A program made the position numbers and the translations under genes. Below, in pieces: positions 5,515-31,866 of a DNA stretch of 32,000 bases (positions within the stretch are counted from its first letter, which is position 1; each line of letters opens with the position of its first letter). Source of the DNA: Sedimentisphaera cyanobacteriorum (GTDB lineage Bacteria; Planctomycetota; Phycisphaerae; Sedimentisphaerales; Sedimentisphaeraceae); assembly GCF_001997385.1 (NCBI RefSeq), contig NZ_CP019633.1, forward strand, positions 720,001 to 752,000, in the 5' to 3' direction. A model generated the notes under the pieces. It did not search any database and was not told the origin of the DNA. It worked only from the letters and a program-made list of their open reading frames with translations.

Positions 5515-5542
5515 TTGACTTATTCCAGCCCTTTATTACACT
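5515..5542 (+). promoter_or_regulatory. Candidate sigma70-type promoter for eno
   Basis: TTGACT (5515..5520), a 16-nt spacer, then TACACT (5537..5542), about 70 nt upstream of the eno ATG. This is a pattern match only. Confidence 0.3.
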
Positions 5543-5592
5543 TGGCGCTGTTTCTGCTTTTAATGTGAAAAAAGCTTAATAATAATGCATAA

Positions 5593-6906
<1,314 letters not shown>

Positions 6907-13531: not shown

Positions 13532-13645
13532 TTTTTAATCATTATAATAATTTCTGCTTAATTAGAAAAATTAAAAAACGGATAAAGGTTTAAAGCCTTT
13601 TTACTTTTCCTCAAGCTTAAATTGAGATACTCAAGGAGCATTAAA

Positions 13646-15832: not shown

Positions 15833-15860
15833 TTTTGGTTAGTTTTAAAGGGTTAGAATT

Positions 15861-18542
15861 ATGAGAATCAGGAAGTTTTTTTTATGTTCAGTTTTAGCTG
15901 TTTTCTGTATTCTGCTGATGCGCAGCGATTTGTTTTCAGCGGAGAAAAACAGCCGCAAAGTGCAGGATTATCTCGAGCCTGTGCCTTTTACAGAGGTGAG
16001 CTTTAACGATGAATTCTGGCTTCCCCGCTTGCAGACAAACCGCAAGGTTACCGTTCCGCATATATTCAATAAGCTTGAAGAAACCGGCCGGATAGACAAC
16101 TTTGCAATAGCAGGCGGCCTTAAAAACGGCAAGCCCCGCTATCATTTTCCGTTTGATGATACCGATATATACAAAACGCTTGAGGGAGCGAGCTATTCTC
16201 TGATGGTTTCGCCCGACCAGGAGCTTGAGAATTATCTTGATGAGCTTATAGAGCTTATCGCAGCGGCCCAGGAAGAAGACGGGTATCTTTATACCGTCCG
16301 CACCAATAGCGGTGATATATGGAGCGGAAAAGAGAGGTGGTCTTATCTCTCTATGAGCCACGAGCTTTACAACGCGGGACATCTGTTTGAAGCCGCGATT
16401 GCTCATTATCAGGCTACAGGCAAGAAATCGCTTCTGAATGTAGCAGTGAAATTTGCCGATCTTCTGGTGGAAACCTTTCATGAGAGCGGCGTTGAAATCC
16501 CGCCCGGTCATGAGATTGTTGAATCAGGCCTCGCAAGGCTTTCTGATGTTACCGGCAATAGAGACTACTTGGAACTTGCCAGATATTTCGTTGATATTCG
16601 GGGCAGGGTTACAGAAGACTACGAGCCTTGGGGCGAATACCATCAGGACCACAAACCCGTACTCCAGCAGGAAGAGGCCAAAGGCCACGTTGTAAGGGCG
16701 CTTTATCTGTACATAGGTATGGCAGATATAGCTTCTCGGATTCCGGATTCTGGCTACAGCGAAGAGCTTATGGATACGCTGGTAAAGATATGGCACAGCA
16801 TCAATGATACAAAGATGTATATTACCGGCGGGCTAGGAGCAAAGCATGGCGGAGAGTCTTTCGGCAGGCCTTACGAGCTACCGAACGACGGATACTGCGA
16901 AACCTGCGCTCAGATTGCAAATGTTATGTGGAATCAGCGTATGTTCCTTCGCTTCAAGGAAGGCAGGTATATAGATTCCCTCGAACGCAGCCTCTACAAC
17001 TCGCTAATCAGCGGAGTATCGCTGCAAGGTGATACCTTCTTCTACCCCAATCCGCTCGTCTCAAGCGGCGGCTATTCACGGAGCTCGTGGTTTGAATGCA
17101 ACTGCTGCATAGGGAATATTGCACGTACAATCCCTTCTATCCCCGGCTATGTTTATGCCCGCAGCGAGGACGGGGTATGGGTTAATCTTTTTATTCCGGG
17201 CAAGGCTGGGTTTGAGCTGTCGAACACTCAGGTTGAATTTGTTCAGAAGGGCGGTTATCCTTGGAAGGGCAATATCTCAATAGAAGTTTCACCAAAAGAT
17301 GAGGCTCGGTTTACAGTGTATCTCCGCATTCCCGGCTGGGCACGGAATAAACCTGTCCCAAGCAGCCTCTACCGCTATAAAGAAATGTTTGATAAACAGC
17401 CCGAGCTTTCTGTAAACGGAAAATCAGTCCCGCTGAAAACACAAAAAGGCTACGCTGCTATCAGCCGCAAATGGAAGTCAGGGGATAAAATTGAGCTGAA
17501 CCTGCCGATGAAGGTTAGGAAGGTTTTGCCGCATCCGAATATCAAAGCGGACAGGGGCAGAATTGCCATGGAAAGAGGGCCGATTGTTTACTGCGCTGAA
17601 TGGCCTGATTTTAACAGCAAACGTGTAACGCATTTGTATATCCCCGAAAATGCAGAGTTCAAGGCTGAATACCGCAAGGATATGCTTGGCCTTAATGGCG
17701 TTGCTGATAAAGGCTGCGTTCTTACAGGCACTGTAAAGGGTCTTTTCGAAAACGAAAAATCCTTGGCAGTATCTAAAAAAGTTGATTTTACTGCAATCCC
17801 GTATTACGCATGGGCTCACAGAGGCGAAGGTCAAATGGCGGTATGGCTGCCTGAAGAGAAAGATTTGGCAAATCCAATTCCTAAGCCTACCGTTAAAAAG
17901 ATGCTTGGCCATTGGAAGCTTGAAGAGGAATCAGGAACTGCTGCAAAAGATTCAAGCGGACAAGGCGGCACCGGCAAACTCGCTGACGGGCTTTCTTTTG
18001 ATGAAGATTCAAAAGAAACTGCTGCAGGAAGCTGTCTCCATTTCGATGGTACCGGCGACTATATCAAACTGCCCGAAGGTTTTGATGATTTTGTAAAGGG
18101 ATGCACAATCTCTGTATGGGCATATCCAACAGCAGTTAATAGATGGGCGAGGTTTGTGGATTTAGGCAGCGGCGCGGCTTCAGACAATATCTTTCTAACG
18201 CGTGAGGCGGATTCGAATAATCTGATATTCGATTCCTTTACAGGAGCAAGCTCATCAGGCCTTGTTCGGGCGGAAGATGCTGTAGAGCTCAATGAATGGC
18301 AGATGTTTACCGCTGCTGCAGGCCCTTCAGGCAATGCTAAGCTTTTCAAGAACGGCAAACTTATAGCCGATGGAAAAATAGAGGTCTCAAATATAAAGCG
18401 AACCCGCAATTTCATCGGCAAAAGCAACTGGTCTGCCGATGAAAACTTTCAGGGGCTTATGGATGATGTGCGAATTTACAATTACGGCTTGAGCGATTCG
18501 CAGGTCAAGCAGCTCTATAAAAACACAAAACCAAGCCATTGA
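15861..18542 (+). CDS. GH127 beta-L-arabinofuranosidase-like (DUF1680) fused to a C-terminal LamG domain
   Basis: 893 aa with a signal peptide (FFLCSVLAVFCILLMRSDLFSA). The N-terminus is GH127-type (FNDEFWLPRLQTNRKVTVPHIFNKLEETGRIDNF). The Zn/Cys catalytic motifs GYCETCA (E-x-C) and FECNCCIGN (C-C) are present. The LamG module lies at about 17904..18522 (CLHFDGTGDYIKLP...CTISVWAYP...WARFVDLG...MDDVRIYNYGLS). Confidence 0.88.
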   Translation: MRIRKFFLCSVLAVFCILLMRSDLFSAEKNSRKVQDYLEPVPFTEVSFNDEFWLPRLQTNRKVTVPHIFNKLEETGRIDNFAIAGGLKNGKPRYHFPFDDTDIYKTLEGASYSLMVSPDQELENYLDELIELIAAAQEEDGYLYTVRTNSGDIWSGKERWSYLSMSHELYNAGHLFEAAIAHYQATGKKSLLNVAVKFADLLVETFHESGVEIPPGHEIVESGLARLSDVTGNRDYLELARYFVDIRGRVTEDYEPWGEYHQDHKPVLQQEEAKGHVVRALYLYIGMADIASRIPDSGYSEELMDTLVKIWHSINDTKMYITGGLGAKHGGESFGRPYELPNDGYCETCAQIANVMWNQRMFLRFKEGRYIDSLERSLYNSLISGVSLQGDTFFYPNPLVSSGGYSRSSWFECNCCIGNIARTIPSIPGYVYARSEDGVWVNLFIPGKAGFELSNTQVEFVQKGGYPWKGNISIEVSPKDEARFTVYLRIPGWARNKPVPSSLYRYKEMFDKQPELSVNGKSVPLKTQKGYAAISRKWKSGDKIELNLPMKVRKVLPHPNIKADRGRIAMERGPIVYCAEWPDFNSKRVTHLYIPENAEFKAEYRKDMLGLNGVADKGCVLTGTVKGLFENEKSLAVSKKVDFTAIPYYAWAHRGEGQMAVWLPEEKDLANPIPKPTVKKMLGHWKLEEESGTAAKDSSGQGGTGKLADGLSFDEDSKETAAGSCLHFDGTGDYIKLPEGFDDFVKGCTISVWAYPTAVNRWARFVDLGSGAASDNIFLTREADSNNLIFDSFTGASSSGLVRAEDAVELNEWQMFTAAAGPSGNAKLFKNGKLIADGKIEVSNIKRTRNFIGKSNWSADENFQGLMDDVRIYNYGLSDSQVKQLYKNTKPSH

Positions 18543-18638: not shown

Positions 18639-20024
18639 CTATTCCTCAGCGGGCTTTTCAGCTGGATCTTCCTGCTTCATTCCCAAAACGCTGCTGTTCC
18701 ATTGCTCAACTGTTTTTTCTACAGCCTCCGCTTTTAACTGCCCCGTTTTAACAGGCAGCCAGAGCGATACCTTCGGGACGTAGGTAATTACCATCAGCGA
18801 GACAACCATTGCCCCGAAGAACGGGAGCATATAACGTGTAACTTTGGCGATAGTAGTCTTTCCTGCACCGCATCCGATAAACAGGCAAGTCCCCACCGGC
18901 GGCGTACACAGTCCGATGCAGAGGTTGGCAATGAGCATAATCCCGAAGTGGATCTCGTGCATACCCATAGTTTTTACTACAGGCAGGAATATCGGCGTAA
19001 AGATAAGCACTGCCGGGGTCATATCCATAAAAGTGCCCACAAAAAGAAGCAGCAGATTGATTGTAAAGAGGATTACAACAGGGTTGTCAGAGAGGCTTAT
19101 AAGCCCGCTGCTTACAGACTGCGGTATGTTGGCCATTGTCATTATCCAGCTCATCCCCGAGCTTGCTCCTATAAGAAGCATTACCACAGCAGTTGTTATT
19201 CCAGTTCGCTTGAGTATTTCGGGAAGCTCTTTCATCTTTATCTCCCGATACACCCAAACCGAGAGGATAAATGCATAAAGCACCGCTACCGCAGCAGCCT
19301 CTGTGGCTGTGAATATTCCTTTCAGAATCCCGCCTATTACTATTATTACAAGCAGAAGGCTCAGAATTGCCCGTTTGAACGACAGCAGTGCCTCAATAAA
19401 CGAAACCCTGTCTGCAGAGCTGTATTTGTATCTGAAGGCAAAATAGCCGCATACGAACATTATAAAAAGTCCTGTGATTATCCCCGGAATTATCCCTGCC
19501 ATAAACATCGCAGCAATGGATACGCTCCCCGCTGCAACGGAATAAACAATCATTACATTGCTCGGAGGGATAAGAAGTCCTGTAGTTGCAGCGGTTGTGG
19601 TTACGGCTACGTTGAATTCGCGGTTGTAGCCTTTCTTGTTCATTTCCGGAATCATAAAACCGCCTACTGATGAAACCGCAGCTGCTGCAGAGCCCGAAAT
19701 AGATCCGAACAGCATGCAAGTAAGCGTGTTTACGTATGCAAGTCCGCCGGGAAACATACCCACTAATGAATTGGCAAAGTCGATAAGTCTTCGTGCCATA
19801 CCGCCTCTACCCATTAGCTGGCCGGAAAAAATAAAAAACGGAATCGCAAGCAAAGCGAAGCTGTTTACCCCTTCGGCCATCTTCGCCGCCACCATAACTG
19901 TGGGGTCGCTTCCCTGAGCAGCGATCGCCATAAAGGCTGCTATAGCAATTGAAACCGCTATAGGAACGTTGATTATCAGCAGGAGTACAAATCCAAGTAC
20001 AAGAATCAGTGTGATTGAACCCAT
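18639..20024 (-). CDS. dctM: TRAP transporter large permease subunit
   Basis: 461 aa polytopic membrane protein with DctM-like sequence (SFALLAIPFFIFSGQLMGRGGMARRLIDFA, LFGSISGSAAA). AGGAGGA lies upstream of the start. The ATG overlaps the dctQ stop codon (TAATG). Confidence 0.9.
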   Translation of the reverse strand: MGSITLILVLGFVLLLIINVPIAVSIAIAAFMAIAAQGSDPTVMVAAKMAEGVNSFALLAIPFFIFSGQLMGRGGMARRLIDFANSLVGMFPGGLAYVNTLTCMLFGSISGSAAAAVSSVGGFMIPEMNKKGYNREFNVAVTTTAATTGLLIPPSNVMIVYSVAAGSVSIAAMFMAGIIPGIITGLFIMFVCGYFAFRYKYSSADRVSFIEALLSFKRAILSLLLVIIVIGGILKGIFTATEAAAVAVLYAFILSVWVYREIKMKELPEILKRTGITTAVVMLLIGASSGMSWIMTMANIPQSVSSGLISLSDNPVVILFTINLLLLFVGTFMDMTPAVLIFTPIFLPVVKTMGMHEIHFGIMLIANLCIGLCTPPVGTCLFIGCGAGKTTIAKVTRYMLPFFGAMVVSLMVITYVPKVSLWLPVKTGQLKAEAVEKTVEQWNSSVLGMKQEDPAEKPAEE

Positions 20025-20538
20025 TAGTTGTCCTCCTTTTGCTGGTCTTTTTCAAGAATTGTTTCTGCAAGCTGCTCGGCTGTAAACAAAATTATAAACG
20101 CACCGGCAATCGGCAGAGCAAAATATACATGCCCCATCGTTACGCCTAAAGCGGGCGTAAGGGCAGCGGTTGTCTGGTCCATATTCGCAGAGGCCACCTG
20201 AACCCCGCCGATTATGAAAACAGCAATAGCGAAAAACAGCACTGTCAGCTGCGTAAAAACCTTTACAAGCTTCCTGGCCTCGGGAGCGAGTTTGCCCACA
20301 AAATAATCAACTCCCAAATGGGCATTTTCCCCAAATGCCAGCGCACCGCCCAGAAGTGCAACCCATACCAAAAGGAAGCGTGCCAGCTCTTCGGTCCATT
20401 TGGCCTGCCCCCAAGAACGAAGCGTGTGAACACGCCCCACAATACATCGAGAACGAGCACCGCCATTGCAATTATCAGTCCGTATTCAAGCATTCGGCAG
20501 AGCCAGAATCTTGCTTTTTTAAGAAGCTCTATATTCAT
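20024..20538 (-). pseudogene. dctQ: TRAP transporter small permease subunit, split by a 1-nt frameshift in a homopolymer
   Basis: Two overlapping ORFs in different frames together make one DctQ. ORF 20263..20538 gives the N-terminus (...LDVLWGVFTRFVLGG) and 20024..20440 gives the rest (QAKWTEELARFLLVWVALLGGALAF...). The frames meet at the C5 run at 20408..20412. One extra C/G there gives a continuous 171-aa protein reading ...FTRFVLGGQAKWTEELARF... Confidence 0.8.
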
Positions 20539-21545
20539 GGTTTAATCTCTCGAATCTTCTTTACAAGCTTGATGATTTCTTCATTCTCAATCGCTTCATA
20601 CATAGGCTGCACCTTTTCTGCGAAGAGGCTCTGATCTACTTCATGTATTGTTACGCCGTTTTCTTCAGCAAATTCAAGCGATCTTTTTGTTTCTTCTTTC
20701 CAAAGCTCTCTCTGATATTCTCTGGATTCTTTCGCAGCTTTCATCAGCCAGCTTTGAAGCCTGCTGTCCAAACTGCGCCATATCTTTGTGCTCATAAGAA
20801 GCACATCAGGTATGCGGGTGTGAGCATCTTTGGAGAAATGCTTGCACACTTCGTAATGCTTGTTTGTCGTGAAGCTGGGCGGGTTGTTTTCAGCCCCGTC
20901 CACTGTTCCCTGAGCAAGAGCTGTATAGAGCTCGCCCCAGGCGATTGGTGTGGGGGATGCCCCCAGCGAGCTTACCATCTTCATTGCCATCTCGCTGTTC
21001 ATTACTCTTATTTTCAGGTTTTTCAGGTCCTCCGGAGTTTTTACAGGCTTGTCCTTAGTGTAAAAATTTCTGCTCCCCGAATCGTAGTAGCAAAGCCCTT
21101 GAACACCTTTATCATTGCCTTTTTTAAGCAGTTCGCCCCCAAGCTCGCTTTTTAGTACTGTCCAGAAATGCTCTTCAGAACGGAATAGATATGGAAGGCC
21201 GAAAACCTTCAGCTCAGGTACAAAATTTTCCAGAGATGCTGCTGAAGTCTTGGTCATTGCAAGGTCGCCGCTGCGAAGCTGCGCTATACACTCCACCTCC
21301 GAGCCCAGTACACTGCTTGGATAGATGTCGATTGTGGCCGTCCCGCCGGAGAGCTCCTCCAAACGCTCCTTCATAAAGACCATGCCCTTATGAACGGGGT
21401 GGTTTGTGTCAAGGCAGTGGCCGAGTTTAAGAACGGTTTTCTCAGACCTGCCTTCCATAGAACGGACAAACAATGAGAATATGCCCGTTGCTATAATAAG
21501 GCCTATTATTAAACCGCTTACAAAAAATGAAGATTCTTTTTTCAC
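20535..21545 (-). CDS. dctP: TRAP transporter substrate-binding subunit (DctP family), probable hexuronate/sugar-acid binding
   Basis: 336 aa with an N-terminal membrane anchor or signal followed by a DctP-like fold (LKLGHCLDTNHPVHKGMVFMKERLEELSGG...IDIYPSSVLG). The start is GTG. Its stop overlaps the dctQ start (ATGA). Substrate is inferred from context only. Confidence 0.85.
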   Translation of the reverse strand: MKKESSFFVSGLIIGLIIATGIFSLFVRSMEGRSEKTVLKLGHCLDTNHPVHKGMVFMKERLEELSGGTATIDIYPSSVLGSEVECIAQLRSGDLAMTKTSAASLENFVPELKVFGLPYLFRSEEHFWTVLKSELGGELLKKGNDKGVQGLCYYDSGSRNFYTKDKPVKTPEDLKNLKIRVMNSEMAMKMVSSLGASPTPIAWGELYTALAQGTVDGAENNPPSFTTNKHYEVCKHFSKDAHTRIPDVLLMSTKIWRSLDSRLQSWLMKAAKESREYQRELWKEETKRSLEFAEENGVTIHEVDQSLFAEKVQPMYEAIENEEIIKLVKKIREIKP

Positions 21546-21563: not shown

Positions 21564-22787
21564 TTAGATACTAAACTGTTCTTCTAAAACTGCCGCAGAT
21601 GCACCTTTCATCAAGGCATTATGGCCTGCCTGAGCAAGTCTTATCTCGATATTTCTTGAAGATTCGTCATAAACATTTGTTTCAAAACGACTCAAGAGAT
21701 GATGCTTAAAATAATCAAAACTGACCTCATTGATATATCCGGCAAGAATTAACACGTCCGGGTCGAATATATTAATAGCAGCAGCTGCTGCCCAGCTTAT
21801 TTTCTCGGCAGCGTAATCTCTAAGTGATAAGGCGTATTCATCGCCTTCTTCTATAAGCTTTTTCCACTTGCCGGCGACTACTTCAGGCTGGTCATCTTCA
21901 ATAATAATTTTGGAAAAACCGCTTTGAACGCCGGATGCAAGGTCTTTTTTTACCTTGTCAGCTATTGCAGGTCCTGATATATGCGCTTCAAGACAGCCGC
22001 GCTGCCCGCAACCGCATAGAGGCCCATTTGGGTCTATTACAATATGCCCAATCTCTCCGCAGCGGTTTGTTGCCCCGTTGATAAGGTTTCCATCTACTAT
22101 AGTATTAACTCCCACTCCATCGGCGGCATTGAAGTAAACAATGTTCTTTTTAGTAAGTGATGGAGATGCGTTCAACTCAGCAAGAAGCCGTACTTTGGTA
22201 GTGAAAACATAAATCGGACATTCGAAATAATCTTCGAGCATTGCCTTGAGCGGGATGTTTTTCCAGCCAAGAGGGCCTGATAGCTTAACAACACCTTCTG
22301 GTGATATTGAACCGCTTAATGCTAAACCTATACCGCCAAGCATATTACTGCTTATTTCGTATTTATTGAGCAATCCTTTGATGCTGATTTCTGCAAGTTT
22401 TACAACATTTTCAGCGGAACGGTCTAACTCTAAAGAAAGATTAACCTTGTCTCTTAGAGAGGAATTAAGGTCGTATAATGCTAATAGTATATGACTTGGT
22501 GAGATTTCTGCGCCCACCACGAACCCACCGGATGGGTTGATTGAAATCAACTTCGGCCGGGCTCCTCTTTTTACGCTTTCAACCTGCGTTTCCTGAATTA
22601 ACCCTTTTTTTCGCAGCCGACCTACAATATAGGTTACAGTAGAACTGCCCAGTTCAGTTTTTTGACAGAGCTGAGCTTGAGAAAGCGGTTCCTGCCTGCG
22701 AAGAATATTCAGGACAAGCTTTTCATTCTTGAGACCGGCGTTTTTAGAATCTATAGCAGTTAAGTTCATATTTATATAATAACTCAT
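21564..22787 (-). CDS. ROK-family transcriptional regulator (N-terminal winged HTH plus ROK sugar-binding domain)
   Basis: 407 aa. The wHTH is LVLNILRRQEPLSQAQLCQKTELGSSTVTYIVGRLRKKGLI. ROK zinc motif: GHIVIDPNGPLCGCGQRGCLE. An alternative start at comp(22767..22769) would give MNLTAIDS... Confidence 0.88.
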   Translation of the reverse strand: MSYYINMNLTAIDSKNAGLKNEKLVLNILRRQEPLSQAQLCQKTELGSSTVTYIVGRLRKKGLIQETQVESVKRGARPKLISINPSGGFVVGAEISPSHILLALYDLNSSLRDKVNLSLELDRSAENVVKLAEISIKGLLNKYEISSNMLGGIGLALSGSISPEGVVKLSGPLGWKNIPLKAMLEDYFECPIYVFTTKVRLLAELNASPSLTKKNIVYFNAADGVGVNTIVDGNLINGATNRCGEIGHIVIDPNGPLCGCGQRGCLEAHISGPAIADKVKKDLASGVQSGFSKIIIEDDQPEVVAGKWKKLIEEGDEYALSLRDYAAEKISWAAAAAINIFDPDVLILAGYINEVSFDYFKHHLLSRFETNVYDESSRNIEIRLAQAGHNALMKGASAAVLEEQFSI

Positions 22788-22814: not shown

Positions 22815-22842
22815 TTGAAATTGAAAATTTTTCAGTTATAAT
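22815..22842 (+). promoter_or_regulatory. Near-consensus sigma70-type promoter for the SDR/LarA-like/kinase/gnd/uxaC operon
   Basis: TTGAAA (22815..22820), a 16-nt spacer, then TATAAT (22837..22842), 45 nt upstream of the ATG at 22888. Confidence 0.5.
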
Positions 22843-22887: not shown

Positions 22888-23706
22888 ATGAATAATTTAT
22901 TTGACCTAACAGAAAAAAAATACGTTATAACCGGCGGAGCAGGCGTTTTAGGAAGCAGAATGGCCAAAGATCTCGCTGCTGCCGGAGCGAAAGTGTGCAT
23001 TGCTGATAACGATCAGGACAATGCCGAAAAGGTTGCAGGCGAAATAAATGAGCAGGGCAGTTTTGCTGTCTCAGTGAAGTGTAATGTGCTGAAAAAGGAT
23101 GAAGTCCGCCAGACACTTGAAAAATCTGAAGAGCTCATGGGCGGGGTTGACGGTCTTATAAACGCCGCAGGAGGGAACAGAAAAGATGCTACTGCCTCAG
23201 GAGATTTGAAGTTTTTTGATATTCCTGAGGATGCTATGCATTTCGTATTTAACTTGAATTTCTTTGGAACATTTCTACCTTCTCAGGTTTTCGGAGAGTA
23301 TTTCGCTGATAAAAAGCAGGGCAGCATACTAAATGTATCAAGTATGGCAGCTCTAACACCCCTGACCAACATTTGCGGCTATGCCGCAGCAAAGGCCGCA
23401 GTAAGCAATTTCACTCAATGGCTTTCAGTGCATATGGCAAAAAATTATTCTCCGCAGATAAGGGTGAACGCTATTGCCCCGGGCTTTTTCCTCACTGAAC
23501 AGAACCGCTTTCTTCTCACTGATGAAAAAACAGGCGAACTCACTGACAGGGGCTCCACGATTATAGAACATACACCTATGGGCGAATTCGGAAAGCCTGA
23601 AGACCTAAGCGGCACCGTTTTCTGGCTCTTAAGCGATGCTTCAAGATTTGTAACAGGAACCGTAATCCCTATCGACGGGGGCTTCAGTGCTTTCAGCGGT
23701 GTTTGA
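22888..23706 (+). CDS. uxuB: SDR-family oxidoreductase, UxuB/YjmF-type fructuronate reductase (D-mannonate oxidoreductase)-like
   Basis: 272 aa with the motifs TGGAGVLG, NAAGGN, the catalytic Y-x3-K (YAAAKAA) and IRVNAIAPGFFLTEQNRFLL. I recognise these as the SDR-type mannonate oxidoreductase subgroup. Substrate assignment also rests on context. Confidence 0.7.
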   Translation: MNNLFDLTEKKYVITGGAGVLGSRMAKDLAAAGAKVCIADNDQDNAEKVAGEINEQGSFAVSVKCNVLKKDEVRQTLEKSEELMGGVDGLINAAGGNRKDATASGDLKFFDIPEDAMHFVFNLNFFGTFLPSQVFGEYFADKKQGSILNVSSMAALTPLTNICGYAAAKAAVSNFTQWLSVHMAKNYSPQIRVNAIAPGFFLTEQNRFLLTDEKTGELTDRGSTIIEHTPMGEFGKPEDLSGTVFWLLSDASRFVTGTVIPIDGGFSAFSGV

Positions 23707-23750
23707 TAACGGCAGGGCAGCAGTTTACCCATTTTAGAGGCAATTTAATT

Positions 23751-25001
23751 ATGCTTTACAGCAGCACAGGCAGTGAAAACACCAACCTATCCGGCGAGGA
23801 TCTGCGAACGGTTTTGTATGAGGCTCTGGACAAGCTTTCTGGCCGCAAAAGGGTTCTGGTGATACCGCCGGACAATACGAGATTCTATTCCCGTGCAGGC
23901 GAGCTTACCCGCTTTGCGTGGGAGTATTATGGGGATAAGCTAACTGATATTCTCCCCGCCCTTGGAACTCATAACCCTATGACAGCAGCTGAAATCAAGC
24001 GGATGTTCGGGGATGTGCCAAAGGAGCTTTTCCGCGTTCACAACTGGAGGGAGGATATAACAGCCCTCGGCCACGTACCTTCAAGCTATATCAGCGATGT
24101 CAGCGGGGGCAGGCTCAATTTCGACTGGCCTGCGCAGGTGAATAAACTGCTTGTAGAAGGCGGTTTTGACCTGATTCTTTCGATCGGCCAGGTGGTACCG
24201 CATGAAGTTATCGGTATGGCAAACTACAACAAGAACATATTTGTCGGGACGGGCGGGGCAGAAGGTATAAACAAAAGCCATTATCTGGGTGCAGTTTACG
24301 GGATGGAGCGGATAATGGGCAAAGCGGAGAATCCCGTTAGAAGCGTTCTGAATTACGCAAGCGAGAATTTTGCGAAAAGCCTTCCTGTTGTTTACGCCCA
24401 TACAGTGATCGAGGCTGGTGAAAACGGTAATACAGCTCGAGGACTTTTTGTAGGCGATGATGAGCAGTGTTTCCATAAAGCAGCGGAGCTGGCTGAGAAA
24501 GTGAACGTAACCAAAGTAGAAAAGCCGCTGAAGAAGGCAGTTGTCCTGCTTGAGGCAGACGAATACAAAAGCACATGGCTTGGAAACAAGGCTATATACA
24601 GAACCCGTATGGCAATGGCGGACGGGGGCGAACTGATAATTCTTGCCCCGAGCGTTAAGGAATTTGGCGAGGATAAACAGATCGACAAACTGATTCGCAA
24701 ATACGGCTACACCGGAACGCCGAATGTGCTTGAACAGACAGAGAAAAACAGCGACTTGAGCGATAATCTAAGCGCTGCCGCCCACCTGATACACGGCTCC
24801 TCAGAAGGGCGGTTCAATATCACTTACTGCCCGGGCGGCTTAACAAGAGAGGAGATTGAATCGGTGAATTTCAGATACGCCAGTTTGGATGAGATAATGA
24901 GAAAATACAGCCCTGAAATGTTGAAGGACGGATTTAATAACATTGAAGGCGAAGAAGTTTACTTCATTTCAAATCCAGGGCTCGGGCTCTGGAAGAGTTA
25001 A
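23751..25001 (+). CDS. LarA-family (lactate racemase domain, nickel-pincer nucleotide dependent) 2-hydroxyacid racemase/epimerase; candidate D-mannonate/D-gluconate 2-epimerase
   Basis: I prefer the ATG at 23751 (416 aa) over the TTG at 23703. LarA-like motifs are VLVIPPDNTRF (cf. SDHTRP), ALGTHNP, and VVPHEVIGMANYNKNIFVGTGGAEGINKSH. The spacing H151-x9-K161-x15-H177 equals what I recall for L. plantarum LarA His174/Lys184/His200. The function is inferred. Confidence 0.7.
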   Translation: MLYSSTGSENTNLSGEDLRTVLYEALDKLSGRKRVLVIPPDNTRFYSRAGELTRFAWEYYGDKLTDILPALGTHNPMTAAEIKRMFGDVPKELFRVHNWREDITALGHVPSSYISDVSGGRLNFDWPAQVNKLLVEGGFDLILSIGQVVPHEVIGMANYNKNIFVGTGGAEGINKSHYLGAVYGMERIMGKAENPVRSVLNYASENFAKSLPVVYAHTVIEAGENGNTARGLFVGDDEQCFHKAAELAEKVNVTKVEKPLKKAVVLLEADEYKSTWLGNKAIYRTRMAMADGGELIILAPSVKEFGEDKQIDKLIRKYGYTGTPNVLEQTEKNSDLSDNLSAAAHLIHGSSEGRFNITYCPGGLTREEIESVNFRYASLDEIMRKYSPEMLKDGFNNIEGEEVYFISNPGLGLWKS

Positions 25002-25031
25002 GGCAAATATTTAATAAAGATTGGGGAAAAT

Positions 25032-26099
25032 ATGAACGATATGAAAAAATATTCTATCCTTGTTCCAACTAGTATGGGACTCCGGCTGACCCCCGAGAAT
25101 TCTCAGCCCTTCCACTGCACCGAAACCTTCAAAATGCAGGCAACCAGCGCTGAAACAAACGTAGCAAGCGTTTCCTCATATCTGGGTATGCCCGTGAAGG
25201 TTTTAACCGCCTTTGTAAAAGGCAGTCCTGTATCCCGCTTCATTAAGGACAACCTCCAAGGCCGCGGGATGGACTATGAAGGAGCAGAATTCGAACAGGG
25301 CGGGCCATGGGGCTTTCGTCATCAGATAAATATGGCCGGCAGCGGCTGGGGCTCACGCGGGCCGCGCGTGCACAACGACAGAGCAGGCGAAGTTGGAAGA
25401 GAGCTGAGCTCGGAATATTTCGATTTCGAAAAAATCTTTGCAGAAGAGGGAGCCCGCATAGTTCACCTGTCCGGTTTAGTGGCGGCATTGTCAGAGAAAT
25501 CCAGCCAGTTCTGCCTTGATGTGGTTCGATCTGCCAAGAAAAATGGCTCGCTTATCTCATTCGATCTTAACTACAGGGCAAGCTTTTGGAAAGGCCGTGA
25601 GAAAGAGCTCGGCGAGGCTTTCGCTGAGATTGCTTCAAACAGCGATATACTTATCGGAAATGAAGAAGATTTTCAGCTCTGCCTTGGGATTGAAGGCCCT
25701 GAATCAGGCGGAAAAGGCCTGGAAGAAAAAATCGATAACTTCAAAGAAATGATTGGAAGAATACAGAAGGCCTATCCGAATGCGAAATGGTTTGGAAACA
25801 CGCTCCGTGAGGTGGTTTCGGCAAACACGCATAAATGGGGAGCGATTCTTACAGACAGCAGCGACTGGGAGATAATAAGCCCCAGAGAGATAGGCGTGTT
25901 AGACCGTATCGGAGGCGGCGACGGCTTCGTTGGCGGCCTGCTTTACGGCATACTTAAAGGCTGGGATGCAGCAAACTGTGCCCGTTTCGGATGGGCAGGC
26001 GGAGCCCTCGCTGCCACTATGCTAACAGACTACGCCCAGCCAGCAGATGAAGACCAGCTATGGAGCATCTGGGAAGGCAATGCGAGAGTAAAAAGATAA
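25032..26099 (+). CDS. PfkB-family sugar-acid kinase, KdgK-like (2-keto-3-deoxygluconate kinase-like; specificity uncertain)
   Basis: 355 aa. The N-terminus matches the KdgK pattern (MGLRLTPENSQPF...SAETNVA). It also has DLNYRASFWK, LIGNEEDF and the PfkB anion-hole motif DRIGGGDGFVGGLLYG. Confidence 0.75.
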   Translation: MNDMKKYSILVPTSMGLRLTPENSQPFHCTETFKMQATSAETNVASVSSYLGMPVKVLTAFVKGSPVSRFIKDNLQGRGMDYEGAEFEQGGPWGFRHQINMAGSGWGSRGPRVHNDRAGEVGRELSSEYFDFEKIFAEEGARIVHLSGLVAALSEKSSQFCLDVVRSAKKNGSLISFDLNYRASFWKGREKELGEAFAEIASNSDILIGNEEDFQLCLGIEGPESGGKGLEEKIDNFKEMIGRIQKAYPNAKWFGNTLREVVSANTHKWGAILTDSSDWEIISPREIGVLDRIGGGDGFVGGLLYGILKGWDAANCARFGWAGGALAATMLTDYAQPADEDQLWSIWEGNARVKR

Positions 26100-26126
26100 T
26101 AGAATTTAACATTAGGAGATAATAAT

Positions 26127-27578
26127 ATGGCAAAAGCAGATATAGCAGTAGTAGGCTTGGCGGTGATGGGTGAAAACCTCATCCTGAATATGGAAAGCAA
26201 AGGCTTCACCGTTGCCTGCTATAACCGCACGGTTTCCAAGGTTGATAATTTTATGAACGGCAGGGCAAAGGGCAAAAATATTATAGGCTGCCGGAGTATA
26301 GAAGAGCTGCTCAGCTCGCTCAAATCACCGAGAAAAATTATGCTTATGGTAAAGGCGGGAAAACCTGTCGATGCTTTTATTGAGCAGGTTCTACCCCATC
26401 TTGACGACGGAGATATTGTAATAGACGGGGGCAACAGCCATTTCCCCGATACAATCCGCAGAACTGAATATGTGGAAGGCAAGGGCAAGCTCTATATCGG
26501 AACAGGCGTTTCGGGTGGCGAGGAAGGGGCTCTTTTAGGCCCCTCTATAATGCCGGGGGGAAGCCCAGCTGCCTGGGAGCACGTAAAGCCCATATTCCAG
26601 AAAATCTCAGCCCACACAGAAAAGGACGAGCCCTGCTGCGAATGGGTTGGCGAAAACGGAGCAGGCCATTTCGTTAAGATGGTTCACAACGGCATCGAAT
26701 ACGGCGATATGCAGATGATCTGCGAAACATATCAGCTTATGAAATACGGCCTCGGTATGAGTAATGAGCAGATGAAGGACGTTTTCACCGATTGGAATGA
26801 AGGCGAGCTGGATTCTTATCTCATAGAGATTACCCGCGATATACTCGGCTGCAAGGATGAAAGCGGGCAGTATGTTCTCGATTTAATCCTCGATACTGCC
26901 GGCCAGAAAGGTACAGGCAAATGGACAGCGATAGCTTCTCTGGATGTAGGTCAGCCGCTTACGCTCATTGGAGAGGCTGTTTTCGCGCGCTGCCTTTCAG
27001 CACTCAAAGATGAACGGAAAAAAGCTTCTGAGGTGCTTTCCGGGCCTGATGCTGAGTTTGAAGGCGACAAGGCTAAAATGATTGACGATCTCCGCAAGGC
27101 GCTCTATGCCTCGAAGATCGTAAGCTATGCTCAGGGCTATCAGCTTATGCGTGCAGCTGCAGCAGAATATGGATGGAATCTCAATTATGGCGGAATAGCA
27201 CTTATGTGGCGGGGAGGATGCATTATACGTTCGGTATTCCTCGGAAAGATTAAAGAAGCCTTCGACAAGAATCCAGAGCTTACCAACCTCCTTCTCTATC
27301 CGTTCTTTGCAGAAGCGGTACAAAACAGTCAGGATGCTTGGAGACGTGTGGTAACAACTGCCGTTAAGCAGGGGATTCCTGTGCCGGCTATCAGCAGCGC
27401 GCTTGCATTCTACGACGGCTATCGAAGCGAGCGTCTGCCTGCAAATATGCTTCAGGCACAGAGGGATTATTTCGGAGCTCACACCTACGAGAGGATCGAC
27501 AAACCTCGCGGCGAATTCTTCCATACCAACTGGACAGGACGCGGAGGAGAAACCGCTTCTTCAAGCTATATTGTTTAG
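26127..27578 (+). CDS. gnd: 6-phosphogluconate dehydrogenase, decarboxylating
   Basis: 483 aa with the motifs GLAVMGENLILN, IDGGNSHF, GTGVSGGEEGA, GAGHFVKMVHNGIEYGDMQ and RDYFGAHTYER. AGGAG lies upstream of the start. Confidence 0.95.
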   Translation: MAKADIAVVGLAVMGENLILNMESKGFTVACYNRTVSKVDNFMNGRAKGKNIIGCRSIEELLSSLKSPRKIMLMVKAGKPVDAFIEQVLPHLDDGDIVIDGGNSHFPDTIRRTEYVEGKGKLYIGTGVSGGEEGALLGPSIMPGGSPAAWEHVKPIFQKISAHTEKDEPCCEWVGENGAGHFVKMVHNGIEYGDMQMICETYQLMKYGLGMSNEQMKDVFTDWNEGELDSYLIEITRDILGCKDESGQYVLDLILDTAGQKGTGKWTAIASLDVGQPLTLIGEAVFARCLSALKDERKKASEVLSGPDAEFEGDKAKMIDDLRKALYASKIVSYAQGYQLMRAAAAEYGWNLNYGGIALMWRGGCIIRSVFLGKIKEAFDKNPELTNLLLYPFFAEAVQNSQDAWRRVVTTAVKQGIPVPAISSALAFYDGYRSERLPANMLQAQRDYFGAHTYERIDKPRGEFFHTNWTGRGGETASSSYIV

Positions 27579-27605
27579 TGAACTAATCTCCGAAAGGAAA
27601 GCAGT

Positions 27606-29015
27606 ATGGATAACTTTATAACAGATAATTTCCTCCTGAAAAGCGGGTCAGCCCAAAGGCTTTACCACGAATTTGCAAAGGATATGCCGATATTTGATTA
27701 TCACTGTCATCTGCCCCCTAAACAGGTGGCAGAGGATGCTATGTTTGAAAATATCACTCAGGCGTGGCTCGCGGGCGACCACTACAAATGGCGTGCTATG
27801 CGTACTAACGGAGTGGATGAAAAATTTGCAACCGGCAGCGCTTCAGACCGCGAAAAATTCCGCAAATGGGCTGAAACTATCCCCTATGCCCTGAAAAGTC
27901 CGCTCCACCATTGGACTCATCTGGAGCTGAAGCGTTATTTTGGTATAGATGAGCTTCTCAGTCCCGCCTCCGCAGACAGGATATACGATAAAGCAAGCGA
28001 AATGCTTAGATCAAGTCAGTACAGCACCCGAAATCTGATGCGAATGATGAGTGTGAAGGCAGTTTGCACCACAGACGACCCCGTTGACAGCCTCGAATAT
28101 CACAAAAAGATTGCTGAAGACGGATTTGAAATCAAAGTTCTCCCAACGTGGCGGCCGGACAAAGCCATGGCTGCGGAGGATACTGATAAGCTCAATCAGT
28201 GGATTGAGAAGCTCAGCGAGGCAGCAGATATAGAGATTAGTGATTTTCACGCCTATCTGGAAGCCCTCAAAAAACGCCACAGCTTTTTCCACCAAAACGG
28301 CTGCCGCATATCAGACCACGGCCTTGAAACTGTTTTTGCTGAGGATTACACCGAATCGGAAATCAAAGCGATTTTTGAAAAAATTCGCTCAAACAAAGAA
28401 CTTGACCGCGATGAAGTGAACAAATTCAAATCTGCAATGCTGACTGAGCTTGCTGCTATGAATCACTCCCGAGGCTGGGCGCAGCAGCTTCATCTCGGTG
28501 CAATAAGAAACAACAATTCGAAGATGTTTAAGTCTCTAGGCCCGGATACGGGATTTGATTCGATTCTCGATGCCGAACTTGCTAGGCCCTTATCTAAATT
28601 TTTAGACAGATTAAACACCAATGACAGCCTCGCAAAAACCATTATCTACAACCTGAACCCCAGAGATAATGAGCTTATAGGCTCTATGATAGGCAATTTT
28701 CAGGATGGAAGCATCCCGGGCAAGATGCAGTTCGGCACGGCCTGGTGGTTTTTGGACAACAAATCAGGCATGGAAAGGCAAATTGAAGCTCTCTCCAGCC
28801 TCGGATTGCTGAGCAGATTCATTGGTATGCTCACTGATTCCCGAAGCTTCCTTTCCTATCCGCGGCACGAGTATTTCAGGAGGATTCTCTGCAATATTCT
28901 CGGCAATGATATCGAAAACGGAATTGTCCCGAATCACCTGAATTCTCTGGGCAGAATGGTTCAGGATATATGCTTTAACAACGCAGAAAATTACTTTCAG
29001 ATAGACCTTGATTGA
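27606..29015 (+). CDS. uxaC: Glucuronate isomerase (uronate isomerase)
   Basis: 469 aa with the motifs FITDNFLL, MPIFDYHCHL, GDHYKWRAMR, WTHLELKRYFGI, YNLNPRDNE, FGTAWWFLD and LTDSRSFLSY. Confidence 0.95.
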   Translation: MDNFITDNFLLKSGSAQRLYHEFAKDMPIFDYHCHLPPKQVAEDAMFENITQAWLAGDHYKWRAMRTNGVDEKFATGSASDREKFRKWAETIPYALKSPLHHWTHLELKRYFGIDELLSPASADRIYDKASEMLRSSQYSTRNLMRMMSVKAVCTTDDPVDSLEYHKKIAEDGFEIKVLPTWRPDKAMAAEDTDKLNQWIEKLSEAADIEISDFHAYLEALKKRHSFFHQNGCRISDHGLETVFAEDYTESEIKAIFEKIRSNKELDRDEVNKFKSAMLTELAAMNHSRGWAQQLHLGAIRNNNSKMFKSLGPDTGFDSILDAELARPLSKFLDRLNTNDSLAKTIIYNLNPRDNELIGSMIGNFQDGSIPGKMQFGTAWWFLDNKSGMERQIEALSSLGLLSRFIGMLTDSRSFLSYPRHEYFRRILCNILGNDIENGIVPNHLNSLGRMVQDICFNNAENYFQIDLD

Positions 29016-29049: not shown

Positions 29050-29077
29050 AGGCGAAGTTTATACTTCGCCTTTTTTC
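29050..29077 (+). terminator. Rho-independent terminator of the uxaC operon
   Basis: Stem AGGCGAAGT (29050..29058), loop TTAT, stem ACTTCGCCT (29063..29071), with a T-run at 29071..29076. Confidence 0.85.
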
Positions 29078-29140: not shown

Positions 29141-30649
29141 CACAGCCATCCCATAAGTCCATAAATTTATCGTTGAGGGCTTGTTTATTGTATTAAAACG
29201 CCCTTTTCTTGAAGGATTTGAATTACCCCAGTTTGCATTTTTTTTGCTTTTGTTCAATTGGCAGTTTTTTGCTCAATACTGCCCGCTCTCTTTTCACCTC
29301 TTTATTTTCGTAAAATCTTGCTACATATTAAAACCCGGCAAATAAGCCTGCTGAGGGCTGCCAACCATACGCGGTGAACCACGTGCTGTCCCACAGGCAG
29401 CCATAACGCTAAAAACATCCAGCCGGCTGAATAATAACCCCTCAGTAAAGTAAACAATCGGCTGAATGCTCCTTTCCACTGACCGAGGAAACCTATATAC
29501 CTTATTAAAATATAAGCCAGCATAGCCGTCCATACTTGCCATAGAATTGCTTTTTGGCTATGCCCTAGGAAATCGCTTAGCTGCAAAGTCTGTTTTATCT
29601 GCTTGAAAAACACCTCTATACCCCAGCGGCACTTATATAGGTCGCAAATACTGCTCGGCGCCCACTGCATATTGTTCGTGATAAATTTCATAAGCTTTTT
29701 CTCGCCGTTAATTTCCACATAAGCCTTAACTAAACGGAGCTTCTTCGGGTATGCCTCGCGGCTTTTCGGCATTTCAAGTTCAATTAAAGCATCGTATTGG
29801 ATATTACCTTTTGGTTCTGTATTCTGTTTAACAAAACGATATTTCATATTATCTTTGGCTCTGGTAACCCAGAATAATTCTCGCCTGTCAAGATCTGCTA
29901 GATGCTTAAAATCCACGTAAGCCTTGTCAAAAACCGCTATTTCGCCGCTTTTAAGGTCCTGACAGAGCTGATAAGCTTCTGTCGAATCATGGGTTGAGGC
30001 TTCTTTTACAATAGCAAATTGAGGCAGGAACGTCTGGAGATTCAGCTGCATATGGCACTTTGCAGCCGCTTTTCGTCTGCGATGTTTAGCCCAGTCAATA
30101 CAGTTGGCTACAAGCTGGATCGTGGTTGAGTCAACCGCATATATTGCTCTCTTAAAACGCCTCGGAAGGCCGGAATACTTATGGCCTCTCCCAAAATCAA
30201 GATGTTTGTTCTGGATATGGGACAGCACCTCCCAGAAGAGAGTCTCTGCCATAAGAGGATCTCGAACCCTGTTTGCATGAGAAAGCCCATTCCTGCTTGG
30301 AGGGGTTGCACGGCGGATAGGAGTCAAAGCTCCAGAATGATTACGCAATGTGTCGGAAACGTCGTTGAGCGAGAGACTGTGAGCAATCTGGACATGAAGC
30401 ATAGATACAATGTGCGACCAGCAAGAAAATGTTCGTGATTGCTTGTCAATACCGAAAGACCGAGACAATTTTGAAACAAGATGTGCAGGAATATGTTGGC
30501 ATATTTGCTTAAGAATGCTATATTGATGTTTGGCGGGTGTCATGGGTTACTCCTAATTTGTTTAATTAGACTGAAAGAATTAGTGTAACTCATACCCCGC
30601 TGATTTTAAAGAAACATCTTGTATTTTGCTCTTCTATGGAATGGCTGTG
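29141..30649 (-). mobile_element. IS4-family insertion sequence (1509 bp)
   Basis: The terminal inverted repeats are CACAGCCATCCCATA (29141..29155) and the reverse complement of 30635..30649, CACAGCCATTCCATA, matching at 14 of 15 positions. They are flanked by direct 9-bp repeats of GAATGATTT. The element encodes a single DDE transposase. Confidence 0.85.
29302..30543 (-). CDS. IS4-family DDE transposase (C-terminal tail probably frameshifted)
   Basis: 413 aa as called. The N-terminus is typical of IS4-group transposases (ILKQICQHIPAHLVSKLSRSFGIDKQSRTFSCWSHIVSMLHVQ), and the DDE region includes AVDSTTIQL, VFDKAYVDF and YKCRWGIEVFFKQIKQ. The last ~45 aa (YYSAGWMFLALWLPVG...) look out of frame. 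The overlapping frame (ORF 29321..29542) reads LLFSRLDVFSVMAACGTARGSPRMVGSPQQAYLPGFNM. Confidence 0.85.
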   Translation of the reverse strand: MTPAKHQYSILKQICQHIPAHLVSKLSRSFGIDKQSRTFSCWSHIVSMLHVQIAHSLSLNDVSDTLRNHSGALTPIRRATPPSRNGLSHANRVRDPLMAETLFWEVLSHIQNKHLDFGRGHKYSGLPRRFKRAIYAVDSTTIQLVANCIDWAKHRRRKAAAKCHMQLNLQTFLPQFAIVKEASTHDSTEAYQLCQDLKSGEIAVFDKAYVDFKHLADLDRRELFWVTRAKDNMKYRFVKQNTEPKGNIQYDALIELEMPKSREAYPKKLRLVKAYVEINGEKKLMKFITNNMQWAPSSICDLYKCRWGIEVFFKQIKQTLQLSDFLGHSQKAILWQVWTAMLAYILIRYIGFLGQWKGAFSRLFTLLRGYYSAGWMFLALWLPVGQHVVHRVWLAALSRLICRVLICSKILRK

Positions 30650-30672: not shown

Positions 30673-31866
30673 ATGATTAGGTATATTTTAGCATTTTCAG
30701 CAGCAGTGCTTTTTCTTGCGCCGAAAGCTAAGCCTCAGGACCTTGGTGCGAATTTCAATGAGAATCTGGGCAGGCCTCTGGAATTTACAGAGCAGATTGA
30801 AAATGAAAATATCAGATATGTCCGTGCTTTCATAGATTTTATGGACTATTTTCTTATCCTTGATGAAGAAAGGAAGATAAGCGGAGTTGATTTAGATGCA
30901 ATCCGAAACCACAACCCTTCTGAGAGGTTTGCTGCGGTAAAGGATAAGTCCGAAGGCAGGCTTGAGCTGATCTCGAGCTTTAAGATTCGCTTTGACATTT
31001 GCAAAGGTGATGTCCCGTTGCTTCATTCAGAGCAGCTGGAGTATGTGTTCACTGCTGCGGAGGAATTCCTCAAATCCTATAATCTTGGAGAAAAAATCAG
31101 CATATTGGTAATGGGTAATGAGCCTATGTTTGCATCGGGCAGGGATTCAAAGGACTATGCTCGCTTTATCAGCGAACTGGCAGACAGAATAGCAGGCTGG
31201 AAAAAGAAATACGGCTGGGATTTTCTCGTTTTTGCCGGCTCGCTCAATAAAGTATCCTTCAGCAAACACCCGACAATCCCTGAAGTGATCAAGGTGGCAA
31301 AGAGGAACAAAAACATAGACGGACTTGATATTCATATACATGCCAGAAAAAGAAAGCATCTGAGGGAAGATTTCAGGTTTATACGAAAAAAAATAGGATT
31401 TAGAAAAAAGCTTATATGCACTGAATTTTCGGTTGTTTGGGTTTTTCAGGGACATTTAGGCGAGCCGCTCGGTGAGTGGGGCGAGAAAAACGGCTTCAAT
31501 CCGGAAATGAAGCTTTGCGAATGGCTTACACTGCTTTCACGCAGGGCGGAAAACGGAAACCCTATATCTGCGGAGCTGTTCGAAGAGTATTTCGAAAGCC
31601 GGAGCTGGTATCCCGCTAACTGGTACAAGACCTTCTATGATGCCTGCAAAGATTATGATGTTTATGCAGCCTCAGGCCGGACATTCTGTGATATGGGGGT
31701 ACGCAAATACAGAGAGGACAGCAAGATGTGGTGCCTGGGATCGGTATTCAGCGGCAAATTTATGGGGAAAAATGAAGACGGCAACCAGAACCCGAGCCCT
31801 CTATTGTACCCGGAATTCAAGGCAGCAACCGAGCATTCCTTAAATGAAAGACTTAAACATAAATAG
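30673..31866 (+). CDS. Secreted hypothetical protein with clan GH-A (TIM-barrel glycoside hydrolase)-like catalytic motifs
   Basis: 397 aa with a signal peptide (ILAFSAAVLFLAPKA). LVMGNEP (Glu150 at 31120..31122) resembles the acid/base motif, and LICTEFS (Glu251) resembles the nucleophile motif about 100 residues later, with DIHIH between them. I do not recognise a specific family. The RBS is AAAGGTGA. Confidence 0.45.
   Translation: MIRYILAFSAAVLFLAPKAKPQDLGANFNENLGRPLEFTEQIENENIRYVRAFIDFMDYFLILDEERKISGVDLDAIRNHNPSERFAAVKDKSEGRLELISSFKIRFDICKGDVPLLHSEQLEYVFTAAEEFLKSYNLGEKISILVMGNEPMFASGRDSKDYARFISELADRIAGWKKKYGWDFLVFAGSLNKVSFSKHPTIPEVIKVAKRNKNIDGLDIHIHARKRKHLREDFRFIRKKIGFRKKLICTEFSVVWVFQGHLGEPLGEWGEKNGFNPEMKLCEWLTLLSRRAENGNPISAELFEEYFESRSWYPANWYKTFYDACKDYDVYAASGRTFCDMGVRKYREDSKMWCLGSVFSGKFMGKNEDGNQNPSPLLYPEFKAATEHSLNERLKHK

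Follow-up and report, generated by a model that had tools for sequence, protein, structure and literature searches.

What reaction is carried out by a LarA-family protein that is encoded among genes of sugar-acid metabolism? This question was raised by positions 23751–25001 (+) of a 32,000-nucleotide stretch of the Sedimentisphaera cyanobacteriorum genome (contig NZ_CP019633.1), referred to below as the window, that is, the whole stretch of DNA that was analysed. These positions contain an intact open reading frame (ORF) of 416 codons plus a TAA stop, whose product is 100% identical to GenBank entry L21SP3_00566 (416 aa, S. cyanobacteriorum), which carries the label "hypothetical protein". The ATG start is the same as in that entry and is preceded by AGAGG 9 nt to its 5' side, and M1 was found to be invariant in 38 close homologues. 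The protein, designated LarAH18 here as a LarA homologue of group 18, is probably a functional 2-hydroxyacid epimerase that depends on the nickel-pincer nucleotide (NPN) and interconverts D-mannonate and D-gluconate within a redox-neutral glucuronate operon.

Assignment to the LarA family, which had been claimed in a preliminary description of the DNA, was confirmed by homology over the full length of the protein. The Pfam model Lar_N (PF09861; the superfamily also corresponds to COG3875) matched LarAH18 with 41.3 bits against a cut-off of 23.3, and the NCBIfam model NF052594, "nickel-dependent putative hexonate epimerase", with 654.7 bits against a curated cut-off of 500 (E = 4e-197, profile positions 2–410 of 411). 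Sequence matches in the PDB were found to 4NAR (E = 3e-39) and to the LarA apoprotein 2YJG (E = 9e-7); these were the only two entries reached by the single-sequence and profile searches of the PDB, which did not return the L. plantarum LarA entry 5HUQ. A true lactate or malate racemase was ruled out, as the corresponding models scored 34–55 bits against cut-offs of 460–500.

LarA homologues were split into 25 groups by Desguin et al. in 2020 (PMC7583248). Groups 19 (GntE1 of C. glutamicum) and 20 (GntE2 of T. maritima, PDB 4NAR) were shown to be D-gluconate 2-epimerases. Group 18, labelled "G2E3", was proposed to consist of hexonate epimerases, without an assay in 2020 (PMC7583248). LarAH18 is 62–63% identical to the published group-18 (NF052594) members from Acidobacterium capsulatum and Koribacter and shows no difference of kind from that group, with which it shares signature and gene context; its identity to the S. 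salicampi orthologue is 87%. Judged by its sequence, the gene is a real and intact member of LarAH group 18 (GntE-type, NF052594). The family, the residues, the gene context and the probable reaction are already published and curated, and the finding is in that respect an ordinary one.

Functional residues were placed with a MAFFT alignment of LarAH18, L. plantarum LarA, GntE1, GntE2 and two group-18 sequences taken from the dataset of Desguin et al. (2020), and their conservation was counted in 81 orthologues from 80 species-level genomes; the correspondence to LarA rests on such sequence alignments. All six residues named in the preliminary description were found at their codons, within the peptides VLVIPPDNTRF, ALGTHNP and VVPHEVIGMANYNKNIFVGTGGAEGINKSH, and each fell under the expected LarA residue and was present in 81/81 orthologues. 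These were D41 (GAC, 23871–23873, +), equivalent to the catalytic D72; R44 (AGA, 23880–23882, +), equivalent to R75, which binds NPN and carboxylate; H74 (CAT, 23970–23972, +), equivalent to the catalytic H108; H151 (CAT, 24201–24203, +), equivalent to H174; K161 (AAG, 24231–24233, +), equivalent to K184, the thioamide tether of NPN; and H177 (CAT, 24279–24281, +), equivalent to the nickel ligand H200. That list was correct in its six entries and lacked a seventh, K280, the equivalent of LarA K298, which lies in W276-L277-G278-N279-K280 (24576–24590, +), where W, N and K are likewise found in 81/81. The spacing of 10 and 16 residues between H151, K161 and H177 equals that of LarA, as had been noticed, and this pattern is not a product of chance because it lies inside full-length homology. 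Together with E152, V153 and V196, these positions (D41, R44, H74, H151, K161, H177, W276, N279 and K280) form the set that is invariant in all 81 orthologues. A degenerate homologue was ruled out, as all essential residues are invariant, and the presence of every NPN and catalytic residue supports the earlier view that the protein would be an active NPN enzyme.

The substrate pocket carries the marks of gluconate epimerases. The 20-residue signature of group 18, D R H H E V K H V W L N K S A A L I H S (Table S3 of Desguin et al. 2020; PMC7583248), is fully matched by D41, R44, H74, H151, E152, V153, K161, H177, V196, W276, L277, N279, K280, S341, A343, A344, L346, I347, H348 and S350. In the substrate loop, H151 is followed by E152-V153 (24201–24209, +; H, E and V each in 81/81), and an EV pair after the second catalytic His is the signature of gluconate epimerase groups 18–20 (PMC7583248, PMC11770544). 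W, L and N at positions 276, 277 and 279 constitute the group-18 signature of helix alpha-11 (published as W L N K), and S341-AAAHLIHG-S350 (24771–24800, +) corresponds to the helix alpha-14 pocket signature S.AA.LIH.S of the group; its peptide LSAAAHLIHGSSEGRF is the same in published group-18 sequences and mostly invariant among the 38 homologues. Furthermore, GntE enzymes are marked by E, V, A and H where LarA has F175, F176, W358 and T359 (Urdiain-Arraiza 2024, PMC11770544), and LarAH18 has the same four residues, E152/V153 by alignment and A344/H345 from the AAAHLIH segment shared with GntE1 and GntE2, for which the alpha-14 register was taken as in the papers and not from superposition.

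The change from SDHTRP in LarA to PDNTRF, for which a relation to substrate or cofactor-phosphate binding had been considered possible, is uninformative. Only D, T/S and R of this motif are conserved among active homologues, the equivalents being PDGTRS in GntE1 and TDYTRV in GntE2. Within D41-N42-T43-R44 (23871–23882, +), position 42 is variable in the alignment and is occupied in group 18 by F, I, Y, Q or N; the Asn of LarAH18 is seldom found at this variable site. Position 45 likewise varies (F, Y, L or A), and Pro40 is invariant within the group. At residues 155–160 (24213–24230), group 18 has G-M-A-N-Y-N-K, compared with G-F-S-G-G-x-K in LarA, GntE1 and GntE2, and on alignment the A-N-Y-N-K before the tethering Lys is a more distinctive feature of group 18 than PDNTRF.

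An AlphaFold2 model of LarAH18, built on the 38 homologues (mean predicted local distance difference test score (pLDDT) 87, predicted template-modelling score 0.87), was compared with the PDB by Foldseek. All 19 matches at E ≤ 0.001 were LarA-superfamily chains, with template-modelling (TM) scores of 0.53–0.83; GntE2 (4NAR) was at the top (TM 0.83, E = 3e-29), and the LarA holoenzymes 5HUQ, 6C1W and 9EID gave TM 0.70–0.73. The predicted fold thus agrees with the GntE2 and LarA structures. With L. plantarum LarA (5HUQ, 6C1W), LarAH18 would share the two-domain fold (TM ~0.70) and has the equivalents of D72, R75, H108, H174, K184, H200 and K298, although identity is only ~17% in the structural alignment (25% over 154 aa by BLASTP) and the N-terminus is ~30 residues shorter. 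In place of the hydrophobic F175/F176/W358 pocket of LarA, LarAH18 has E152/V153 and residues that are small or polar, and the gene, unlike that of LarA, lies outside any larABCDE operon.

With GntE1 and GntE2, LarAH18 shares the predicted fold, the catalytic and NPN residues, the H-E-V/S loop and the W...K of helix alpha-11; the role proposed for those enzymes, the feeding of mannonate into the pentose phosphate pathway, is also the one that LarAH18 would have. It differs from them in an identity of only 29–31%, in L277/N279 as against T/A-G, in the final residue of the signature, which is Ser (S350) here and Arg in groups 19 and 20, and in the PfkB-family kinase of its operon, T. maritima having gntK, another kinase, beside gntE.

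LarAH18 is the second gene of a five-gene operon (22888–29015, +), with gaps between genes of 44, 30, 27 and 27 nt. The first gene (22888–23706, +) encodes a short-chain dehydrogenase/reductase (SDR) of the fructuronate reductase/D-mannonate oxidoreductase type (UxuB/YjmF-like), which passes the D-mannonate oxidoreductase model NF006132 with 359 bits against 281. The models for the alternatives KduD and gluconate 5-dehydrogenase scored far under their cut-offs, and both were rejected. Downstream of LarAH18 follow a PfkB-family sugar-acid kinase (25032–26099, +; PF00294), the decarboxylating NADP-dependent 6-phosphogluconate dehydrogenase Gnd (26127–27578, +; TIGR00873, 771 bits) and the glucuronate isomerase UxaC (27606–29015, +; PF02614, 702 bits; NF002794, 658 bits). 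A sigma-70-like promoter match, TTGAAA-16-TATAAT (11/12; 22815–22842, +), is the best of the region and lies in the 100-nt gap 5' of the SDR gene, and a terminator-like hairpin of 9 bp followed by a T-run (29050–29071, +) lies 35 nt 3' of uxaC; the former is a consensus match only and the latter a pattern match only. In the published survey, the neighbours of group 18 were an SDR (36%), 6-phosphogluconate dehydrogenase (32%), a ribokinase-family kinase (16%) and glucuronate isomerase (12%) (PMC7583248, Table S1), and all four of these typical neighbours are found in the Sedimentisphaera operon.

The substrate pair is most likely D-mannonate/D-gluconate, to judge from this context. The preliminary description had drawn the same substrate from the SDR gene next door, which is supported by the match of that SDR to the D-mannonate oxidoreductase model, and had placed the protein in a sugar-acid setting, in keeping with the conserved Gnd, UxaC and kinase neighbours. 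As a new proposal, however, the substrate assignment did not stand, since Desguin et al. 2020 (PMC7583248) had already listed these neighbours and suggested that the enzyme epimerises a hexonate. The presumed dependence on NPN accords with the presence in the window of LarB, the first enzyme of NPN biosynthesis, encoded 15 kb upstream of LarAH18 (8114–8890, +; NF033503, 281 bits against 175).

We infer cofactor loading from homology with LarA: NPN would be tethered to K161 and the coordination of nickel completed by H177, and the substrate carboxylate would be held by R44, H74 and H151. Of the acid/base pair, H74 or H151 would take the proton of the C2 hydroxyl as a hydride passes from C2 to the pyridinium C4 of NPN; this proton-coupled hydride transfer would give a 2-keto intermediate, to whose opposite face the hydride would be returned. 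At the level of the pathway, where the operon layout is observed and we infer the substrates and the order of kinase and epimerase, glucuronate would be taken up, probably by a divergent tripartite ATP-independent periplasmic (TRAP) transport system, isomerised to fructuronate by UxaC and reduced to D-mannonate by the SDR with NAD(P)H. LarAH18 would then convert D-mannonate to D-gluconate, the PfkB kinase would form 6-phosphogluconate with ATP, and Gnd would yield ribulose-5-phosphate and CO2 with NADP+. Rodionova et al. are cited as having put forward the same redox-neutral logic for T. maritima.

Conservation of this context was assessed in a one-genome-per-species scan, in which at least 591 genomes encoded a relative. 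The counts given here refer to the best 80 (63–71% identical), which belong to Planctomycetota, Acidobacteriota, Bacteroidota, Ignavibacteriota, Spirochaetota and others, and were obtained by tblastn with the window proteins and by unbiased clustering of all ORFs within 8 kb. The SDR was present in 52–54 of the 80 loci, Gnd in 47–48, UxaC in 32–33 and PfkB in 28–30; PfkB matches at ≥ 65% identity (65–82%) were located beside LarAH18 in ~24 loci. Among the 36 loci whose flanks extend to 5 kb or more on each side, 25 had Gnd and 22 the SDR. ORF clustering gave the same ranking as tblastn and added LacI regulators (27 loci), a PdxB-like dehydrogenase (25) and an MFS transporter (16). The tagaturonate epimerase UxaE (PF16257) accompanied LarAH18 in 30/81 loci, mostly of Bacteroidota (for example at 4343–5656 (-) of locus L063), and is absent from the Sedimentisphaera window, which suggests an operon dedicated to glucuronate and not to galacturonate. 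The recurring core consists of UxaC with or without UxaE, fructuronate reductase, LarAH18 and Gnd. It links makers of D-mannonate to Gnd, and epimerisation at C2 is the one single step that leads from D-mannonate to the skeleton of the Gnd substrate.

A further link came from an exhaustive search of a protein library with LarAH18, in which 2443 cluster representatives were matched at E ≤ 0.001, 375 of them at E ≤ 1e-30. Among them were metagenomic proteins of 588–612 aa (P0124, P0128, P0138 and P0150) in which an N-terminal GntK/IdnK-type gluconokinase is fused to a C-terminal LarAH18, with TIGR01313 scores of 124–180 bits against a cut-off of 113.75 and NF052594 scores of 477–576 bits. Their clusters have 1, 7, 1 and 3 members from different contigs, one of them from a Pirellulaceae genome, and one fusion was verified to be a single gene within a contig of 53 kb; the cluster member P0275 is located at 4857–6644 of locus L081. 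In the part of the LarA-superfamily literature that was searched, no mention of GntK-LarAH18 fusions was found. Moreover, a separate P-loop gluconokinase (GntK) gene lies beside LarAH18 in two Acidobacteriaceae loci that are without the PfkB kinase. Fusions and adjacent genes tie LarAH18 to the phosphorylation of gluconate, and they point to the PfkB kinase as the functional equivalent of GntK in Planctomycetota and Bacteroidota. The same library contained P0149 (823 aa, metagenomic), in which LarAH18 is followed by a C-terminal AGE/cellobiose 2-epimerase-like domain (NF041848, 366 bits, below the cut-off of 800); from its sequence, this protein would combine two different epimerase folds.

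Interconversion of D-mannonate and D-gluconate has been assayed in the literature only for GntE1, GntE2, LarAH15 and LarAH10. The D-gluconate 2-epimerase LarAH15 from Phytophthora nicotianae has a narrow substrate spectrum, with a Km of 9.4 mM and a kcat of 111 per second on D-mannonate (PMC11770544). It very probably belongs to group 18, as the forward primer used to clone it encodes MATLLFAE, which matches MTLLFAEGSK of P. infestans PITG_09435, a protein that was in group 18 in the 2020 dataset and has MTLLFAEGSKTAELS at the start of its LarA part. Among 150 library representatives, no match to LLFAEG was found. LarAH15 has the same E, V, A and H pocket residues as LarAH18, from which it differs in being eukaryotic and without operon context.

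As for the surroundings, an ROK-family regulator with an N-terminal winged helix (21564–22787, -) and a TRAP transporter (18639–21545, -) are encoded divergently from the operon. The transporter, presumably for the uptake of uronate, comprises DctP (20535–21545, -), DctQ (20024–20538, -) and DctM (18639–20024, -). The dctQ gene is split by a frameshift at the G-run 20408–20412 (G5), where one added G would restore FVLGGQAKWTEELARF, as in DctQ of loci L001 and L004; the split is either a true frameshift or a homopolymer sequencing error. The ROK arrangement recurs in the Planctomycetota loci L001–L003 and L037, and TRAP genes follow uxaC in L001, L003 and L004. With its TRAP and ROK genes and without UxaE, the Sedimentisphaera operon differs from the group-18 loci of Bacteroidota, which have MFS and LacI-type genes. 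Upstream of the transporter, 10589–18542 (+) encodes three large glycan-degrading enzymes (alginate-lyase-like with LamG, GH43/GH32-like, and GH127-like with LamG; those with LamG are of secreted type), which are likely sources of uronate-containing oligosaccharides. The last 4 nt of larB are shared with a gene for NAD(P)H-hydrate dehydratase (8887–9780, +), and neither larC nor larE lies beside larB; a gene for nicotinamide-cofactor repair appears to be co-transcribed with the first gene of NPN synthesis. Directly after the terminator-like hairpin of the operon lies an IS4-family transposase gene (29302–30543, -). Elsewhere in the window, a single 531-aa ORF (3600–5195, -) combines shikimate kinase (residues 10–159) with chorismate synthase (188–519), and a 397-aa ORF (30673–31866, +) had no NCBIfam match at E ≤ 0.001. 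An Rfam scan of the window gave no match.

Several points weigh against LarAH18 being a D-mannonate/D-gluconate epimerase of this pathway. A 2025 paper lists only groups 1, 2, 5, 6, 7a, 10, 19 and 20 as experimentally confirmed, no enzyme assay of LarAH18 or of any bacterial group-18 member was found in the literature, and NCBIfam still calls NF052594 "putative". The group assignment of LarAH15 derives from an N-terminus encoded by a primer, not from a full sequence, and GntE enzymes have high published Km values for free D-mannonate (9–120 mM). In the protein itself, the K161 loop has A-N-Y-N-K instead of S-G-G-x-K, and pLDDT falls below 50 in two stretches, residues 153–157 and 166–173 on either side of K161, with no other part poorly modelled; such weak modelling around the tethering Lys is expected for a cofactor-free model and limits what the prediction can say on the cofactor site. 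Within the 32-kb window, larC and larE were not seen, and they would lie outside it. Finally, the operon kinase is of the PfkB type, nearest to 2-keto-3-deoxygluconate (KDG) kinases and not a known gluconokinase: no NCBIfam model matched it at its cut-off, and its nearest PDB entry is 2AFB, the KDG kinase of T. maritima (E = 2e-33). A search of the window for a P-loop gluconokinase gave only spurious P-loop matches, to the AroK domain at 5055–5195. The PfkB kinase would be a gluconate 6-kinase, or else a mannonate or KDG kinase.

The kinase is also the pivot of the first alternative, which we regard as unlikely and in which the order of the two steps is reversed: PfkB would phosphorylate D-mannonate, and LarAH18 would be a 6-phospho-D-mannonate 2-epimerase that makes 6-phosphogluconate for Gnd. 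Both activities were shown in extracts of Lactobacillus suebicus, in which mannonate is phosphorylated first and 6-phosphomannonate is then epimerised, the genes being left open (Valk et al. 2020, PMC6978723). There is a similarly small chance that PfkB and LarAH18 represent these activities without assigned genes. Like the proposed step, the L. suebicus epimerase connects UxaC, UxaE and UxuB, the shared upper pathway, with 6-phosphogluconate and Gnd; it does so after phosphorylation, and LarAH18 would in this reading accept a phosphorylated substrate. No further mention of activities of this type was found in the literature searched. The reversed order is favoured by the operon kinase of Sedimentisphaera being KDG-kinase-like and not of the GntK type, by the kinase gene preceding the LarAH18 gene in many Bacteroidota loci and by the millimolar Km of GntE enzymes for free mannonate. 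However, GntE1, GntE2 and LarAH15, the last probably of group 18, do act on unphosphorylated D-mannonate, and the GntK/IdnK-type domains fused or adjacent to LarAH18 elsewhere fit free gluconate as the product. The kinase candidates that Valk et al. named for L. suebicus, which are GntK paralogues and not PfkB proteins, also speak against this reading. In a weaker form of this novel reading, the PfkB protein of the SDR-PfkB-LarAH18-Gnd clusters may be a new, non-orthologous gluconokinase family.

Less probable still, and weakly supported, is another hexonate as the substrate, namely D-altronate/D-allonate, L-gulonate/L-idonate or an aldarate, with PfkB as the KDG kinase of a parallel branch. 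For group 18, Desguin et al. went no further than "a hexonate", and for group 19 they suspected that the native substrate is another one; the likeness of the kinase to KDG kinases would agree with such a branch, as would Eda and KduI, which were found by ORF clustering in 7 and 5 loci, respectively. The pocket differences from GntE1 and GntE2 at L277/N279 and S350 point the same way. Nevertheless, the commonest neighbours besides the SDR are Gnd, which needs 6-phosphogluconate, and makers of D-mannonate (UxaC, UxaE and mannonate oxidoreductase), which tie to Gnd only through C2 epimerisation, and both the gluconokinase fusions and the assay of the probable group-18 enzyme LarAH15 point to gluconate.

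A LarAH18 that is non-functional as an NPN enzyme, through an incomplete cofactor pathway or a decaying locus, is also weakly supported and highly improbable: larB without larC or larE in the window, the frameshifted dctQ nearby and the IS4 transposase abutting the operon would fit it, but the ORF is intact with each catalytic and cofactor residue conserved and 87% identity to the S. salicampi orthologue (63–71% across phyla), lar genes are commonly dispersed (LarB within 10 kb of LarAH18 in only 2/80 loci), and the dctQ frameshift, lying in a G5 homopolymer, may be a sequencing error.

Epimerisation of free D-mannonate to D-gluconate by LarAH18 remains the preferred explanation, and it provides a function-level annotation for a gene that GenBank lists as a "hypothetical protein". 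The operon offers a clean test case for distinguishing free from 6-phosphorylated mannonate as substrate and for the substrate of the PfkB kinase, and the gluconokinase-LarAH18 fusions bear on both the form of the substrate and the role of this kinase. If the reversed order were true, LarAH18 of the Planctomycetota and Bacteroidota clusters would be the first NPN enzyme to act on a phosphorylated sugar acid. For the organism, the redox-neutral route would suit a fermentative metabolism: an anaerobic planctomycete could ferment the glucuronate of polysaccharides via the pentose phosphate pathway without net redox cost.

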